A stretch of DNA of 64,000 nucleotides from an uncultured Gemmatimonadales bacterium (GTDB lineage: Bacteria; Gemmatimonadota; Gemmatimonadetes; Gemmatimonadales; GWC2-71-9): assembly GCA_963730185.1 (NCBI GenBank), contig CAVSQW010000007.1, positions 694,263 through 758,262 of the forward strand, written 5' to 3'. Of the stretch, positions 40,647 to 57,061 are shown in pieces (positions within the stretch are counted from its first letter, which is position 1; each line of letters opens with the position of its first letter). The notes under the pieces are model-generated. The model was not told the origin of the DNA. It did not search any database and saw nothing but the letters and a program-made list of their open reading frames with translations. The position numbers and the translations under genes are program-made.

Positions 40647-41179
40647 AGTTAAGTGTCTAATTCTTCATCAATATACTGCATTCATTCACTGCAATTATAG
40701 AAATGAATTTAGCTTTGTATTGCGTCTACTAACAAGTGCCATATCATTCACTCAGACTGGAATTATCCAAGGTACAGAAAAAGGAACTGGTTTTGTTCAT
40801 GAAGCGTACACATGATAAGGAAGAGTACAGAAGGGCATACGCTATAAAACAAAAGATGGAAGGAGTACCATACAGGACCATAGCAAAGGACATTGGTGTC
40901 AATTACCGTAATGTGTAGATGACTGGATAAACAACTACAGAAAATTTGGTCTGGATGGCATAAGAAACAAAAGAAAAAATGGTGGTAGAAGACCGGTGAT
41001 ATCTTCTGCTAAAAACAAAGAGATGATAAAAGACATTGTACTTAACAAATCACCCAAAACATTTGGCTATCTAAAAAATACATGGAGTATAAGACTCTTA
41101 GCTACCCATCTTACCTCACTTTTAGGAATCAATGTTAGCCCCAAACAAACATGGAGGATTATCCATGAACTTGGTATAG
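40647..41179 (+). mobile_element. 5' remnant of IS630-family element
   Basis: Left end TA-AGTTAAGTGTC resembles ends of the 44444 element; HTH ORFs with PKTFGY..TWSIRLL; cut at 41180. Confidence 0.75.
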
Positions 41180-41358
41180 TAGATCTCTTGCGTAATTAGC
41201 ACAGGTTAGCATGATCTTTTAGCCATTATCTATTTCTATAACTAACAGGTATTCATTATTCTGTAGTTTACCAGTCCAGATACTATATCTGATATCCTGT
41301 CGTACTTTCTCAACCTGTTTCTAAAGACATCGTTCATTATCCTGACGATATGAAAATC

Positions 41359-41511
41359 TTGTAGTATCCTACAATATTGTATGTTGGCTATAGGTTCGAA
41401 AGGTACATGCTCCGTACGAGAGCGAGATCCTGACTGAACCAGTATCCTAAGCGGCTATCAAACTACCCCATATAGAGGGTGAATGGATGTTTGCCGCCTG
41501 TATAGCCAACA
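41359..41511 (+). ncRNA. Predicted bridge RNA of the IS110 element
   Basis: 5' hairpin TTGTAG/CTACAA, 11-bp closing stem, two stem-internal-loop arms holding target- and donor-matching segments. Confidence 0.78.
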
Positions 41512-41526
41512 AATAAAAAAAAGGAA

Positions 41527-42616
41527 ATGAGAAAAAAGATGAATCATCTTGGAATAGATGTAGGAAAAAGAAAATGTAGAGCAGTGCTTAAAGACGATAA
41601 AGGAAAGATATTAGACGAATTCTTTTTTGGTAATGATGCAATCGGGATAGGTAATCTACTTTCAAAGATATCATCAAATGAAATCTGTGCTACTCAAGCA
41701 GTATTAGAGTCTACAGGCAACATGTGGATGAGAATCCATGATACATTAGAAGATAATGGAATAGATACAATACTAGCCAATCCATACAAGACAAGAATAA
41801 TAGCAGAAGCTAAGAATAAAATCAGATAAACTGGATGCTCGGATATTATCTGATCTGTTGAGAACAGACTTGATATACGAGTCATATGTACCAACAAAAG
41901 AAGATAGAGACAAAAGAAGCCTTGTTAGACACAGAATAACACTATCAAGAACCAAGACAAGGCTGGTAAACAAGGTACACTCTATCCTTGACAAATATGA
42001 TTACAGGACTAATATGACTGATATATTCGGTGTTTCAGGAGTAGAATGGTTAAAATCACTGCTTTCAAAGGTTAGTCCAGTAGACAGGATAATTCTGAGC
42101 ACGTCAATAGAATCTATCCAAACAATTAACCACCAGATAGATATGGTATCAAAAGAGATATCAAAGTATGCATCCAGGGATAGCACGGATGTAAAGCTCC
42201 TTTTGAGTATAACAGGAATTGACATATTTGCTGCCATGCTCATATCCTCAGAAATAGTTGATGTGAGACGATTTTTCACACCATGGAAACTGGTAAGCTA
42301 TGCTGCAGGACTGGCTCCTTCCACTAGAGAATCAGCTGGAAAAATGATAACAGGGAGAATAACTAAACAGGGGTCGCCTTGGCTAAGGTGGATACTACTC
42401 CAGTGTGCACTTGTAGCAGTAAAACATGATAACCGTCTTGGTTTGTTCTATACCCGAATAAAGAACAAGAAGGGACATGGTAAAGCCATAGTTATGGCAA
42501 CCGCCAAAGAACTACTGGTAATCATATGGTACATGCTGACTAGAAACCAACTCTATAGAAACATGAACAAGCAGAGATATGAAAAGAAGTTACGGAAATT
42601 AGAACGACTTCAATAA
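41527..42616 (+). CDS. IS110 recombinase (DEDD RuvC-like plus Tnp domain); one frameshift near 41815
   Basis: GIDVG, LESTG, KSDKLDA across the shift, GLAPSTRESAG, ITKQGSPWLR. Confidence 0.92.
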
Positions 42617-43814
42617 TAAATGCAATTGCTGGCTCACTCTACGTACCATCCATGTAGCGATAGCTATGCTTAGAAAAAATTATTAGAACCAAAAGCGTAA
42701 ACATTTTAGGCTAAACGGGATACCAAAGGAAGCCAACTTATGAGATGATTTTCATGGATGTACTTTTTTATCCTGCAGATAGCATGTTCTATTACTATTC
42801 TTTTTGCAGAATGATTTCTGTTGTACTCTTTTTGCTCTTTAGTTAATTCACAATCTTTTTCCTTTTTGATTGGCAATGATGACCGTTGTTCTGGATAGTC
42901 ACCTTCTATTCCAGAAATCCAAGGTCATACATACCCATTACATCCTTTGGTATTTCAGCAGGATGATTATCCTTATAGACTTTGTAATCATGTTTCTTTA
43001 CCTATTTGTCTGTGCTTTGTTTTGTAGATTATCAGTCCCTTTTGGTTTACTGTATATAGGTTCTTTACAGTGTGTTTCTTTTTCTTTCCTTCAGAATAGT
43101 ATAGTCTTCTTCTCAACCTGTTCTTAGGTCTTGGTATTGGCTGTTCTGTACAGTCTGTAAATCATAAAGCCAGGGAAATACTGTTCAACCTCTTCTTTGG
43201 TTTTTAGTCTCTTGGTTACCTTATACAGTTTCTGAGGAATGGGTAAGCATGTCTTGATCAAGGATTCTATCTTTTCAATATCCCTGCATACATTACTCTG
43301 GTCCAAACCGAAGAGAAATTCCATCAGGGTATAGGTTATGTACAGACGATAGTATACCAGTACCATGACAACCCTATCTTTGGGAACCAGTTTGAAATGT
43401 CTCCCTGCACCAACGGCTCGTTCTCTTTTATTTCTTCGGGTGGATGAAAGACGCTTTATTTCGTACTTTGCATACTTTGATTCTATTACTTTAAAAACAT
43501 CATCAAACTGTTGGACCGAAAGACCTGTAAATGATTTGAATAAACGTGGTTTTCTTGATAACCTCTTATAACTTAGCAAAAAGAAAGGACATGTTCACAT
43601 GCGATAAACAGAAATAAAGCTGTTTTGCCTAATTACGCAAGAGATCTAATGATAACTTTTTTCTAAAAGCATTAATCATTTTGATAATTCTTTCATCCAT
43701 TGAAATCTAACTAAACTAATGGTTAAACTAGGATGCAAAGTAGTTAATTTTTTTAGGTTTACTCATAAATCAGCAATTAGTTCAAACTATCTTAAAAAAA
43801 TATAAAATAAAAAA

Positions 43815-44443: not shown

Positions 44444-45598
44444 AGTGAAGTGACTTGATTCTTGTCATATTTAATTTACAACATAGTCTACATTGTTGTA
44501 TAGACAAAGCTTAATGGAAGCAGGATACCTCCATTTTGTGAATCACCCTTCCACTGTTAGCCTTACCATACAGCAGAAGAAAACGTTAAACTCATTGGTG
44601 AAGTCTACCAGTAAGAAAGATGAGTATCGCAAGTATTTGGCTGTACTACGAAAAAGTGAGGGAAGAACCTATCTAGAGATATCAAAGGAGTATGAAATTA
44701 GCAGAGCAGATCGGTACAAAGATGGATTGCTGCCTATATCAAGAAAGGAATAGATGGACTAAAAAACAAGAAACCAGGTGGAGCAAAATCCAGGATAACT
44801 GATGAGGATAAAGAGATTATTCTTTCAGTGTTATTTAACGACCCTCACATCTTTGGCTATTTAAGAAACACATGGAGTTTAAGATCTTGCAAGATGTCTT
44901 ACAGATGAGCTTGGAATCCAAATCAGCTTTAGACATCTGCAGCGAATAACCAGGGATATGGGTATCAGATGTAAGAGACCTAAATTGGAACTGTTACATG
45001 GACCCGATTATGAAGAAGGGAAAGCAAGAGTAAAAAGATACAAGCAGATAGCATCAGCTTTGAAAAAAAAGAGTGATGTTAGCATTTGAAGATGAAACTA
45101 CTATAACGCAGAAACCATGTATAAGAAAGTCTATGTTCTTTGAAGGAGGCGAACAACAAAAGATTGAGCATACAGGGACTAGAAAGAAGTTCTCTCTGTC
45201 TACATATCCGCGTTATGGCCGGATCAAAGATTAATATATGATTTTTATGATAAAATGAACTCCACCAATACCATAGACCATCTTGAAAACATCAAAAAGT
45301 ATATCACAAAAAATTGCTGGAAAAGACTGATAATCATCTGGGATAATGCTTCATTTCACACAAGCAAAATGACAACGGAGTATATTAAAGAACAGAAACA
45401 TTGGCTTACCATAGTCCATCTTCCAAAGAAAGCTCCTTATCTGAATCCAAATGAAAGAAAGATAAACCAGCAAATAAAATCAGATGTATGTGCTAATCGA
45501 TTTTACACCAGTATAGAGGAACAGAAAGATGCGGTATCAAATTATCTGGAAAATAGATTTAGAACATGGAATAACGACAGGCACTACGACACTTGACT
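44444..45598 (+). mobile_element. IS630-family element, copy 1, transposase fragmented
   Basis: Ends AGTGAAGTGAC / GACACTTGACT, left TA; FEDE, WDNASFH, PYLNPNE; A8 run near 45063. Confidence 0.9.
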
Positions 45599-54919: not shown

Positions 54920-57061
54920 TTAAGTAGAATATTTTTTTTTCAATTTCTTAGCTAGTTTTGGACCTATTTTTGGGATCATAGATAGTTTTGATTCTGAAAT
55001 TAGCAGGAGATCGTTAGGTACGTTGATTCCAGCCCCATGAAGAGATCTCGCTCTTGCCCTTCCTATATCTTTAATCTGTACCAATGGAACAAGCTCTGCC
55101 TTTACTCCATGCTTAATTCGACTTTCGAGTGAAAAAAGAACGGGTAAAAGATCGTTTCTGTTTAACAATTTACATATTTCGAATATTGAAGAGATTAACC
55201 AATTAGACACTTCGACAATTCTATGTATATCACCTGGCTCCACACCAATTCTCTCATTCATCCTTTTTTCTGTAGACTCATTGATCCATTCGTATAGAGT
55301 CCATAGACTTCTAGAACAATCCATAATGTCTACGTCTGAAAAAAATTCATCATAATTGTTATAAAATAGATAACTGAACTCTTCGATGTCTTGTTTTCTA
55401 AACGAAAGTTTAGGATAAAAGTCTGGGCAAGTGGTAATCATATGAAGGAAACCAAATACATTGTTGATTTTTACAGACTTTGGTTTTATATCATTGATGG
55501 TGTTCCTAAACGCAACAGCAGTCTCAGGATTAAGATATAAATTTGAAACTAATTTTCCAAATCCGGTCACATTATACATATTGTTTTGCAATCGAATTAG
55601 ATCTTCCTCTAGAAAATAATCTAAAGATGAATCTATTTTATCAAATAGGGAAGTATTGTTACTATCTTGAAATGAATAAAATGTCTTTGAGAACAAGTCA
55701 TAGATATCATCCAGACTAATTCCGTTAAATGAAGCAATTACACCCAGTAGATGGATTTTAATCGCTATTATATTTCCAAGATTTGAATTTAGAGGTTCAG
55801 GAATCCCTAATATATAATGATCATACAAGTCTTCATAAGATGTTCTTGAATCTGAAATAATTATGGATTCTCCATAAGCATCATATTGAGGTCGTCCAGC
55901 TCTTCCACAAAGTTGTTTATATTCAAGCACACTAATAGGAACTGAAGCACCGTATACAAAATCATACCGGGTAACATTTGTTATTATGACTCTACGTGCA
56001 GGGAGGTTGACGCCAGCAGCTAGTGTAGGTGTTGCAAACAGGGATTTTATGATTCCACTTTTAAATGCCTCTTCAACAACCCCTCTACTTGAAAGACTTA
56101 ATCCTGCATGATGAAACCCTATCCCATTAGATATCAAATTTGACAAATTTTTAGTTAAATCCGTGTCATCACCCTCCTCCAAAATTTGTTTAGAAACCTT
56201 TAAGGTATTTTTCCTTTCTTCTGGTGATAGGGTCTTGGATACAACCTCTGAAACCTTCTTAGCTAAGGATACGGCTCGTTTTCTTGTTTCAACAAAAATA
56301 AGATTTTGTCCATTACTATTTAGAGAATCCATGATTAAATCGATAGCCATCGAAGTGGTGTCTTTCCCTGACTCAGAAACTTTAATTCTGGAATCGTTAT
56401 TAGAATATATTATTCCATCAGAATATACCCCTTCTATCAATTTTGTTGGTCTCCAAGTGCTTTCTATTAATCTTGATCCTAACCATCCTGCAATTTCGGA
56501 GGCATTAGTGATTGTAGCACTTAAGCCAAGAATCTGAGATGATGAATAGTATTTTTTTATTTTGGTTAGGACCATTTCTAAAACCGGTCCCCTATCTTGA
56601 TCTCCGATTAAATGAATTTCGTCTGAAATAAATAGTCCAACATTTGATAACCATGAAGCATTATGTCTAAGAATCGAGTCAATTTTTTCGTTTGTCATAA
56701 TAATTATGTCTGCTGAACTTAAATCGGCGTTTGAAGTATTAAAATCTCCAGTGCTAATCTTTATTCTTATTTTTTTGGAAAATATACCAGATTTATCTAT
56801 AGAAGTAAATTCCAAATATTTTTCATAAGCTAATGCTCTTAATGGTGTAAGATATACTACTTTCTTATTTTTTTCTAAGGATTTAATGGCAGCGAGTATG
56901 GCAATCAATGTTTTCCCGCTTGCGGTAGGAGTAGTAATTAAAATATTAGAATCTTCTAACAAGCCTTTTTCTATAGCCAATTGTTGTGGAGGATATAGAG
57001 AGGTATAACCTAAAAATGAAAGATAAGAAGAAATCCTATCATCACTTAACTTCAATTGCAT
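54920..57061 (-). CDS. hel308: Ski2-like DNA helicase Hel308/Hjm
   Basis: PTASGKT, DEIH, SAT, FHHAGL, TLAAGVNLPA, GRAGRP, IGRARAR. Confidence 0.93.
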   Translation of the reverse strand: MQLKLSDDRISSYLSFLGYTSLYPPQQLAIEKGLLEDSNILITTPTASGKTLIAILAAIKSLEKNKKVVYLTPLRALAYEKYLEFTSIDKSGIFSKKIRIKISTGDFNTSNADLSSADIIIMTNEKIDSILRHNASWLSNVGLFISDEIHLIGDQDRGPVLEMVLTKIKKYYSSSQILGLSATITNASEIAGWLGSRLIESTWRPTKLIEGVYSDGIIYSNNDSRIKVSESGKDTTSMAIDLIMDSLNSNGQNLIFVETRKRAVSLAKKVSEVVSKTLSPEERKNTLKVSKQILEEGDDTDLTKNLSNLISNGIGFHHAGLSLSSRGVVEEAFKSGIIKSLFATPTLAAGVNLPARRVIITNVTRYDFVYGASVPISVLEYKQLCGRAGRPQYDAYGESIIISDSRTSYEDLYDHYILGIPEPLNSNLGNIIAIKIHLLGVIASFNGISLDDIYDLFSKTFYSFQDSNNTSLFDKIDSSLDYFLEEDLIRLQNNMYNVTGFGKLVSNLYLNPETAVAFRNTINDIKPKSVKINNVFGFLHMITTCPDFYPKLSFRKQDIEEFSYLFYNNYDEFFSDVDIMDCSRSLWTLYEWINESTEKRMNERIGVEPGDIHRIVEVSNWLISSIFEICKLLNRNDLLPVLFSLESRIKHGVKAELVPLVQIKDIGRARARSLHGAGINVPNDLLLISESKLSMIPKIGPKLAKKLKKKYST

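Follow-up and report, generated by a model that had tools for sequence, protein, structure and literature searches.

A predicted RNA-guided IS110-family element of Nitrososphaerales with a bridge RNA upstream of its recombinase gene

Introduction

Does an archaeal insertion sequence (IS) that sits inside the transposase gene of another one carry the RNA that guided it there? The question is raised by positions 41345-42760 of a 64,000-nt stretch of contig CAVSQW010000007.1 (hereafter the window, to whose positions all coordinates refer), in which the initial annotation, made from the letters alone, had proposed an IS110-family, RNA-guided recombinase with a two-loop RNA in its 5′ non-coding end. 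The analysis reported here points, with a probability that we put a little under 0.9, to an element of Nitrososphaerales with a gene for a DEDD/RuvC-like recombinase and, preceding that gene, a bridge (seek) RNA of ~135 nt by which insertion would be guided. That early reading gains support from homologous copies having the same ends, from loops that covary with the flanks of the element and from stems with compensated changes.

Precise insertion into the transposase gene of another insertion sequence

The element is 1416 bp long and is inserted at a TG core within a gene for a DDE_Tnp_4 transposase on the minus strand, the reading ..RIKKY ending at 42761 and RIMNDVFRN.. picking up at 41344. 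As the initial annotation had proposed, excision of the element rejoins the two parts of the host transposase, which is borne out by the sequence itself, by an intact paralogue and by empty sites in soil metagenomes and in genomes G401, G403 and G405. The uninterrupted paralogue comes from a related genome (L195, 1404-2351, minus strand; 315 amino acids with HTH_Tnp_4 and DDE_Tnp_4 domains) and reads ..RLKKYRIMSDIFRN.. continuously over the site. In the orientation of the element, the left flank is ..TTATCC-TG and the right flank TACTTTT.., and empty sites read ..ATCC-TG-TACTT.., with no target duplication besides the TG core. Loose ends of soil-metagenome contigs from X1 and X2 pass from 41344 directly into TACTTTTTTA, and on the other side two X2 contigs arrive at 42759 from ..GTTCATTATCC; the element is skipped in one X2 contig, a diverged copy with one differing letter at the joint. 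G403 has a single exact copy of the 16-base rejoined site, against at least 36 in G401 and at least 30 in G405; when up to two mismatches are allowed, the counts are 15, 142 and 215 for G403, G401 and G405, respectively, versus 12, 13 and 11 for a reversed-pattern control. Two paralogues of the host IS in G403 align contiguously through the insertion site. The DDE_Tnp_4 host IS reaches extreme abundance in certain genomes of Nitrososphaeraceae (G401 and G405), which provides the IS110 subfamily of the window with many landing sites inside another transposase gene.

The ends of the element were delimited by blastn comparison of its 182-nt left non-coding end (LE) and 144-nt right non-coding end (RE) with 159 related loci. 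In ~75 loci the LE alignment starts at position 1, and in ~40 loci the RE alignment finishes at position 144; homologous copies all start with AC(G)A(T/C)ATGAAAATC and finish with GATTTTCATGGATG. Since TG is found at both junctions, the core can be assigned to either side. The initial annotation had combined the 5′ RNA with subterminal inverted repeats of the IS1111-like kind, and these repeats indeed form a 9/9 pair that is conserved in homologues. It is this conservation that gives the repeats their weight, because 9-nt inverted pairs also occur by chance elsewhere in the same 1.5 kb. RE and the homologous right ends share the conserved blocks TAGCG..GCTAT, TTA.TAGA and GGCTAAACAGGATA.AAAAGA, which could supply promoter elements across the circle junction.

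A conserved, predicted two-armed RNA in the left end

The minimum free-energy fold of 41345-41530 (−54.4 kcal/mol, z = −4.13, equalled by 1 of 200 shuffles) holds an 11-bp closing stem and two arms, each arm consisting of an internal loop between two helices, with ~135 nt in all. To assess this architecture in the family, we aligned the left end of the window with 65 non-identical homologous left ends (66 rows), taken from the loci with a full 172-nt left end among the 73 loci with a defined start. From the alignment, RNAalifold retrieved both stems of each arm, which are four of the five helices, but not the closing stem, and 10 pairs had compensatory changes. When the five-helix structure is scored over the 66 sequences and its 29 pairs, 94.8% of cells are paired, versus 34.9-45.0% with the 3′ partners slid by 1-3 columns. 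Eight pairs are changed on both sides, in 93 cells versus 32.6 in shuffles, and none of 500 shuffles reaches 93. All five stems are kept in the family, four of them with compensatory changes, while the closing stem varies by wobble only. In arm 1, the clearest exchanges are GC/AU in the inner stem (27 sequences) and UA/CG in the outer stem (9 sequences); in arm 2, they are CG/UA both in the outer stem (25 sequences) and in the apical stem (19 and 9 sequences). No matching family for the element RNA was returned by Rfam (best E = 0.32).

Guide segments of the target loop covary with the insertion sites

The loop of arm 1 carries two segments that match the target. Its 5′ guide immediately precedes the U·G pair with which the inner stem begins, and its 3′ guide, ATCCTG, stands 3 nt before the GAACC outer stem. 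Sister copies carry the 5′ guide AAAAGTACA, which matches core and right flank at 9/9 positions; copies in X1 and X2 have an A at 41402, the G of the window being a private change with which a G:T pair is still possible. Among 20,000 shuffles of the 182-nt end, 605 contained ATCCTG, 285 contained the donor-loop segment ATGGATG and 1263 contained an 8/9 match to AAAAGTACA; no shuffle had all three.

Guides and flanks change together throughout the homologous copies. Because these copies are kin, the shuffle tests given here overstate significance, and we therefore also counted by guide type, which remedies this only partly. Over 46 unique combinations of guide and flank, the 7-nt form of the 3′ target guide matches the left flank at 196 of 230 variable positions (shuffle mean 128.3, maximum 151; 0/10,000 shuffles reach 196); the match is exact (7/7) in 24 combinations and at least 6/7 in 38. 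Likewise, over 20 unique combinations the 5′ target guide and the right flank agree at 113 of 140 positions (shuffle mean 92.5, maximum 110; 0/10,000 shuffles reach 113), and single-base changes of the right flank (TTAAC/G/TTT) are mirrored in the guide (AAG/C/ATTAACA). Counted by type, 20 distinct 7-nt guides are found, such as GTTAATG, AGTTGTG, GGTGCTG, TGCTATG and AACCCTG, 13 of them with an exact flank and 18 with a flank at ≥6/7.

A separate observation concerns the left flanks of L030, L044, L049, L085, L086, L118 and L036, which go with guides AGTT(C/G/A)TG and in which the site lies after ..TAAGTTAACAGTT.TG. This flank has TAAGTTAACAG in common with the reverse complement of the main-clade target (GGCTCTG-TTAACTTA), and the common target may belong to a repeated, partly palindromic genomic element.

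The donor loop

The loop of arm 2 matches the ends of the element itself. Its 3′ guide, ATGGATG, stands 3 nt before GCCGC and is nearly invariant among homologues, as is the right-end terminus. As for the 5′ guide, ATATCGTCA would be expected, and the loop has CTATCAAAC, which ends at a U·G pair and of which only TATC matches. This short match covaries with the start of the left end: left ends starting with ACGAT go with CTATC and those starting with ACGAC go with CTGTC (the large classes, with 26+12 and 12+8 loci; L099 is the one clear exception), L122 (ACGGT) has ..ACC.. at the donor 5′ guide (LE position 4), and the mini elements described below (ACTAC) have CTGTA (position 3). On account of this covariation, the donor 5′ guide is taken as real, though limited to left-end positions 3-6. 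No partner for its four core-proximal bases (AAAC, AAAG or ATAG) was seen by eye in the target or donor flanks.

Most of what the initial annotation had drawn in this region stands: the 11-bp closing stem with two arms in the 5′ end, the left-target segment of arm 1 with 8/9 matches including one G:T pair (the G now recognized as private, with A in X1 and X2), ATCCTG, the position of the core TG 3 nt before the stem in both arms, the 7/7 right-donor guide and the weak left-donor guide reduced to TATC, a 4-nt match to which covariation now lends reality. Covariation of loop segments with flanks in homologues, which it had named as a check, is observed. What has to be revised is the strand. The annotation had placed the target on the minus strand, with a CA core, and its picture was IS621-like because of this flip; the segments and their matches hold, whereas in the orientation of the element the 5′ guide complements the top strand and the 3′ guide complements the bottom one, which is the order of IS1111-type elements and the reverse of that in IS621.

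Breadth of the family and mini elements with their own guides

A covariance model of the RNA, R1, was built from 49 copies (of the 66 rows, 9 truncated ones were dropped and 8 near-duplicate or decayed ones left out by hand). The R1 scan covered 67 sources, namely the window and 66 of 219 loci, and in every homologue with a match the RNA lies upstream of the gene. Relatives at 44-65% identity have it just upstream of the recombinase gene (85-107 bits). Weaker matches (25-45 bits) come from loci of Methanoperedens, Bathyarchaeia and other Thaumarchaeota, and the RNA is upstream also in distant archaeal relatives at 36-58% protein identity (Methanoperedens, Bathyarchaeia and other Nitrososphaerales). 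R1 had no match in Thermoplasmatota loci, nor in the 25 remote IS110 loci that come from the bacterial family (L003-L027), and in the window, right end included, the scan with the model revealed no second copy.

In G405 and G401, the RNA is also present without a recombinase gene within 1.5 kb. There we identified 14 complete mini elements of 315-326 bp that lack an open reading frame (ORF) (L177-L180, L182-L190 and L192); they are made up of ACTACATGAAAATC as left end, the entire RNA and GATTTTCATGGATG as right end. Each of them sits in a different flank, which ends in (C)GGCTCTG, followed by TAAAGTTAAG or TTAACTTAAG, and each site corresponds to the guides of the mini element inserted there; the 3′ guide of the mini elements themselves, GGCTCTG, exactly matches 13 of the 14 left flanks. 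In G405, 23 RNA matches at E ≤ 1e−5 stand against ~6 recombinase loci, one of which has an open full-length frame.

Vaysset et al. treated 662 archaeal IS110 recombinases phylogenetically, and an October 2026 preprint (bioRxiv 10.64898/2026.10.21.760802) clustered 181,180 IS110-adjacent non-coding sequences of bacteria and archaea and described bridge RNAs unlike that of IS621 that covary with their sites. In the literature searched, we found no description of bridge RNAs of Nitrososphaerales or of mini elements carrying guides; the supplements of the preprint may include the family.

The recombinase and the state of the window copy

Two adjacent ORFs on the plus strand, 41527-41829 and 41858-42616, represent one IS110-family recombinase split by a frameshift, and the Pfam domains DEDD_Tnp_IS110 and Transposase_20 match the two halves. 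Full-length homologues have 355-360 amino acids and up to 94% identity to the recombinase of the window; one of them bears the NCBI name 'IS110 family RNA-guided transposase [Candidatus Nitrosocosmicus sp. R]', and the intact, 94%-identical homologue P0001 matches NCBIfam NF033542 ('IS110 family RNA-guided transposase') with 228.6 bits (cut-off 140). The extra A that breaks the frame follows AAG near 41811-41812; it is absent in 4/4 aligned relatives, and the X1 and X2 contigs are likewise without the base at 41812. Judging from these sequences, the break is either private to the window copy or an assembly error.

Among annotated proteins of a plasmid collection, the closest are haloarchaeal IS110-family transposases (e.g. 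the ISHvo10 family), a likeness of 37-41% identity over 94% of the length that was drawn by protein only. Transposases of IS4321/IS5075 have ~23% identity over 94% of the length (E = 2e−6), and the similarity to IS621 is remote (phmmer E = 9e−9, N-terminal half only), the match to ISCro4 being partial as well. Protein sequence similarity does not settle placement in the IS110 or the IS1111 group, as both are remote.

Since its recombinase is frameshifted and one of its guide bases is mutated, the window copy is probably inactive. To the stronger proposal, that the family does use a bridge RNA and the window copy is a dead relic, immobile even in trans, we assign even odds. Both the frameshift at ~41811-12 and the guide G at 41402 are private, being absent in sisters, and the copy is located in a decayed host IS within an IS-rich stretch. 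Nevertheless, neither of the ends is damaged, nor are the subterminal repeats, the donor guides or the RNA structure; a G:T wobble can still form at the altered guide base, the additional A may be an error of what is clearly an imperfect assembly, and a recombinase could still act in trans, as the mini elements suggest. The relic proposal refines the RNA-guided explanation rather than competing with it.

Proposed mechanism and alternative explanations

By analogy with IS621 and ISEc11, the element would excise as a circle joined at TG, after which the RNA, bound by the recombinase, would hold the circle junction and a matching target together; strands would be exchanged at the TG core, and insertion would be orientation-specific, leaving nothing duplicated except TG. 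The 5′ side of loop 1 would read core and right target flank on the top strand with 9 nt, and its 3′ side would pair with the bottom strand with 6-7 nt. Loop 2 would have the same build for the donor, that is, the junction of right and left ends, its 3′ side corresponding to the right-end terminus plus TG and its 5′ side to 4 nt of the left end. It is from this analogy that we infer transcription and expression of the RNA, its complex with the recombinase, the circle, catalysis and activity.

Besides the kinship of the copies, several observations weigh against an RNA-guided element. Eight of the 46 combinations of 3′ guide and left flank match at fewer than 6/7 positions (e.g. L051, L144 and L075), mostly in visibly decayed copies. 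Of the 9 nt expected to match in the donor 5′ guide, only 4 do, and the core is left uncovered; RNAalifold, for its part, favours an internal pairing of TATC with GGAT, which belongs to the donor 3′ guide. In the window copy, the recombinase gene is frameshifted and the flank formed by the host gene is broken too. The expected pattern of the right-end/left-end circle junction (..TTTCATGGA-TG-ACGAT..) was not found in any of the 219 loci. Finally, the RNA-library runs X19 and X20 contain only contigs at 90-99% likeness that cover parts of the gene and the 3′ part of LE, and for this reason are uninformative on transcription, ends and strand.

It could be argued that the matching segments act as DNA, being internal copies of target and donor half-sites that are bound by the recombinase, for example for synapsis; the matches as such are there in DNA just as much as in RNA. 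We consider this highly improbable, given that the segments are framed by five helices, four of them with compensatory substitutions, which indicates selection on a folded single strand, and that the experimentally studied members of the family use RNA (PMC11208160, PMC11187229). Even less credit is due to the idea that the left end is merely a structured 5′ leader regulating translation or stability of the recombinase messenger RNA and only by coincidence resembles the flanks: the structure does lie directly upstream of the start codon, where it would be co-transcribed, and a structured 5′ untranslated region that inhibits translation has been reported for ISPpu9 (PMC12288879), but a leader would have no reason to track the flanks through 20 specificities, the RNA is kept in mini elements without ORFs, and the three matches occur jointly in 0/20,000 shuffles.

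Comparison with known IS110-family systems

In the IS110 family, elements of the IS110 group have long left ends and 2-3-bp subterminal repeats, and in those of the IS1111 group the repeats measure 7-17 bp and the right end contains the RNA (Durrant et al. 2024, PMC11208160). In seekRNAs of the IS1111 type, the complement of the top strand lies 5′ of the match to the bottom strand (Siddiquee et al. 2024, PMC11187229); the same study mentions 'a few' IS1111 members with an upstream non-coding region, which are not analysed there.

The archaeal element has the features of IS110 in the broad sense, i.e. both recombinase domains, insertion precise to the core, and a structured RNA with loops that match target and donor (the donor 5′ guide in part). 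Like IS621 (PMC11208160), it has a DEDD recombinase with PF01548 and PF02371 and a left-end RNA that precedes the gene on the strand they share, with two internal loops, for target and donor, in which each side ends on the core dinucleotide and the 5′ side is longer (8-9 nt) than the 3′ side (4-7 nt). Unlike IS621, with its 2-3-bp repeats, it has repeats of 9 bp, a donor 5′ guide that stops short of the core and a remote protein. Its subterminal inverted repeats and the position of the top-strand complement 5′ in the RNA are those of the IS1111-type elements ISEc11, ISPa11 and ISKpn4, and site- and orientation-specific insertion and natural reprogramming among relatives are also known from IS1111-type elements, in which, however, the RNA lies downstream of the transposase gene and not upstream as here (PMC11187229). 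Of the features of the IS110 group (IS621-like), the upstream RNA is thus found, and neither the guide order nor repeats that are absent or 2-3 bp long; of those of the IS1111 group, repeats within 7-17 bp and the guide order are found, and a downstream RNA is not. As far as its sequence goes, the element is a mosaic of IS1111-type guide order and 9-bp repeats with an IS110-type upstream RNA.

Two further comparisons concern target and mini elements. IS4321 and IS5075, of the IS1111 group, similarly have a fixed insertion site inside another mobile element, whereas the target here is the DDE_Tnp_4 transposase coding sequence of an archaeal IS, and the hosts are archaea. MITEPpu9 of Pseudomonas putida resembles the archaeal mini elements in being small and free of ORFs, in having IS110-family ends (those of ISPpu9) and in presumably being moved in trans by the transposase (PMC12288879); unlike MITEPpu9, which carries the gene of the small RNA Ssr9 (PMC12288879), the archaeal mini elements of 315-326 bp carry a complete bridge RNA.

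One may ask whether this combination represents a third architecture of bridge recombinases, namely an IS1111-type system with the RNA module at the 5′ end, a short donor guide and mini elements that carry guides. We advance this tentatively, as a possibility somewhat less probable than its opposite. A 5′ RNA module in an IS1111-type system would fit the translocation of the RNA between ends postulated by Durrant et al. (PMC11208160), and since the donor loop reads 4 nt only, donor recognition would partly fall to the repeats or the protein. If so, mini elements of ~320 bp would come with a targeting RNA of their own, depend only on a recombinase supplied in trans, and constitute a self-addressed non-autonomous transposon, a very compact natural design of cargo plus guide.

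Table 1. Positions of the element, its RNA and guides, and the interrupted host gene in the window
Feature	Position	Strand	Evidence and remarks
Left TG core copy, end of left target flank ..TTATCC-TG	41343..41344	plus	Flank and element both end in TG; left flank ends in TG in most homologous loci
LE, 182 nt, starts ACGATATGAAAATC	41345..41526	plus	Homologous blastn alignments begin at LE position 1
Left subterminal inverted repeat ATGAAAATC	41350..41358	plus	9/9 complementary to 42747-42755; nearly invariant in 66 aligned copies
Bridge/seek RNA core (predicted): closing stem P1 and two arms	41379..41513	plus	Covariance model R1, 126.4 bits, E = 1.1e−23, sole match in window
Closing stem P1, 5′ strand	41382..41392	plus	Pairs with 41501-41511; in minimum free-energy fold; in the family 7+2 pairs, 91% and 77% paired, wobble changes only
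Target loop, 5′ guide AAAGGTACA	41399..41407	plus	Reverse complement of core and right flank (TG-TACTTTT), pairs with top strand; 8/9 here, 9/9 in sisters
Target loop, 3′ guide ATCCTG	41427..41432	plus	Same sense as left flank and core, pairs with bottom strand; 6/6 here
Donor loop, 5′ guide TATC	41456..41459	plus	Same register as target-loop 5′ guide; covaries with LE positions 5, 4 and 3; four core-nearest bases unmatched
Donor loop, 3′ guide ATGGATG	41483..41489	plus	Same sense as right-end terminus and core; 7/7 to 42754-42760
DEDD recombinase gene (PF01548 and PF02371)	41539..42616	plus	Pfam on both halves; one extra A near 41811-41812 breaks the frame
RE, 144 nt, conserved blocks, ends GATTTTCATGGATG	42617..42760	plus	Homologous RE alignments finish at 144
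Right subterminal repeat GATTTTCAT	42747..42755	plus	Pairs 9/9 with 41350-41358
Second TG core copy	42759..42760	plus	End of RE
Host transposase, N-terminal and middle part (HTH_Tnp_4, DDE_Tnp_4)	42761..43579	minus	Pfam; 7 stops in a single frame, i.e. further frame breaks
Host transposase, C-terminal part (RIMNDVFRN...RIMNTC*)	41242..41344	minus	Read from sequence; L195 unbroken at the site

Origin of the DNA

The GC content of the window drops from ~0.69 to ~0.33 between ~20,400 and ~20,600 and is low from there to the end of the contig. The source assembly (G000) comprises 17 contigs of 67.5-70.8% GC, and its 16S is bacterial (1581.9 bits with the bacterial model versus 1020 with the archaeal one). 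On the AT-rich side, the Hel308-type helicase at 54923-57061 has a counterpart with 99% identity in G403, the genome of locus L028 (title 'MAG: Candidatus Nitrosocosmicus sp. isolate WA-bin7'), and DNA neighbouring the helicase matches G403 at 80-92%; loci related to the element come almost all from metagenome-assembled genomes (MAGs) of Nitrososphaerales. The contig is most likely an assembly chimera, bacterial from 1 to ~20,400 (69% GC) and derived from Ca. Nitrosocosmicus in the AT-rich 43.5 kb (33% GC); that these 43.5 kb represent a huge inter-domain transfer is much less likely. The origin in an ammonia-oxidising archaeon, which the initial annotation had proposed, can accordingly be kept for the AT-rich segment, given the helicase, the Nitrososphaerales loci and an AmoA-like ORF of G403 described below, and does not apply to the assembly, a bacterium with 69% GC.

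The chimera, with an AT-rich part foreign to G000, also explains why searches of the own genome and of the bacterial family were blank. In G000, neither further copies nor an empty site were found; like an AmoA search of the same assembly, which had no positive control, these searches are uninformative, because G000 is a high-GC bacterium. In the bacterial family, a DNA search of 301 genomes returned nothing, and among 401 genomes searched with the protein no match exceeded 37% identity, results that say nothing on archaea. In G403, ORF 13-396 of locus L194 (contig C23) reads, by eye and unscored, like the C-terminus of an archaeal AmoA, which we take it to be. At a distance of ~1.1 kb from this AmoA-like ORF, a decayed copy of the host IS contains the target site, exact and empty.

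Near the element in the window, at 40736-41199 and 44493-44753, there are short ORFs with weak matches to helix-turn-helix domains (HTH_23, HTH_33/HTH_32), all below the Pfam cut-offs, and a similar ORF without a match. The ORFs at both positions look like fragments of further transposases, and the surroundings of the element like an IS graveyard.

Implications

The principle of RNA-guided recombination in this family is already established, and IS110-adjacent non-coding regions of bacteria and archaea have already been surveyed on a large scale (PMC11208160; bioRxiv 10.64898/2026.10.21.760802), so that the gain is incremental. In its architecture, the element is a mosaic of the two described subgroups. 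Recombinases with bridge or seek RNAs are under development as programmable tools for DNA insertion, and knowledge of them comes mostly from a few bacterial elements. The present family offers a well-populated natural series from archaea, with ~20 retargetings and clean empty sites, together with a reduced donor guide and mini elements that keep only the ends and the guide RNA. The subfamily represented in the window has its guides programmed for a site within a transposase gene, that of a different and very abundant archaeal IS, and such programming of one mobile element into the transposase gene of another is relevant to the genome dynamics of soil ammonia oxidisers.

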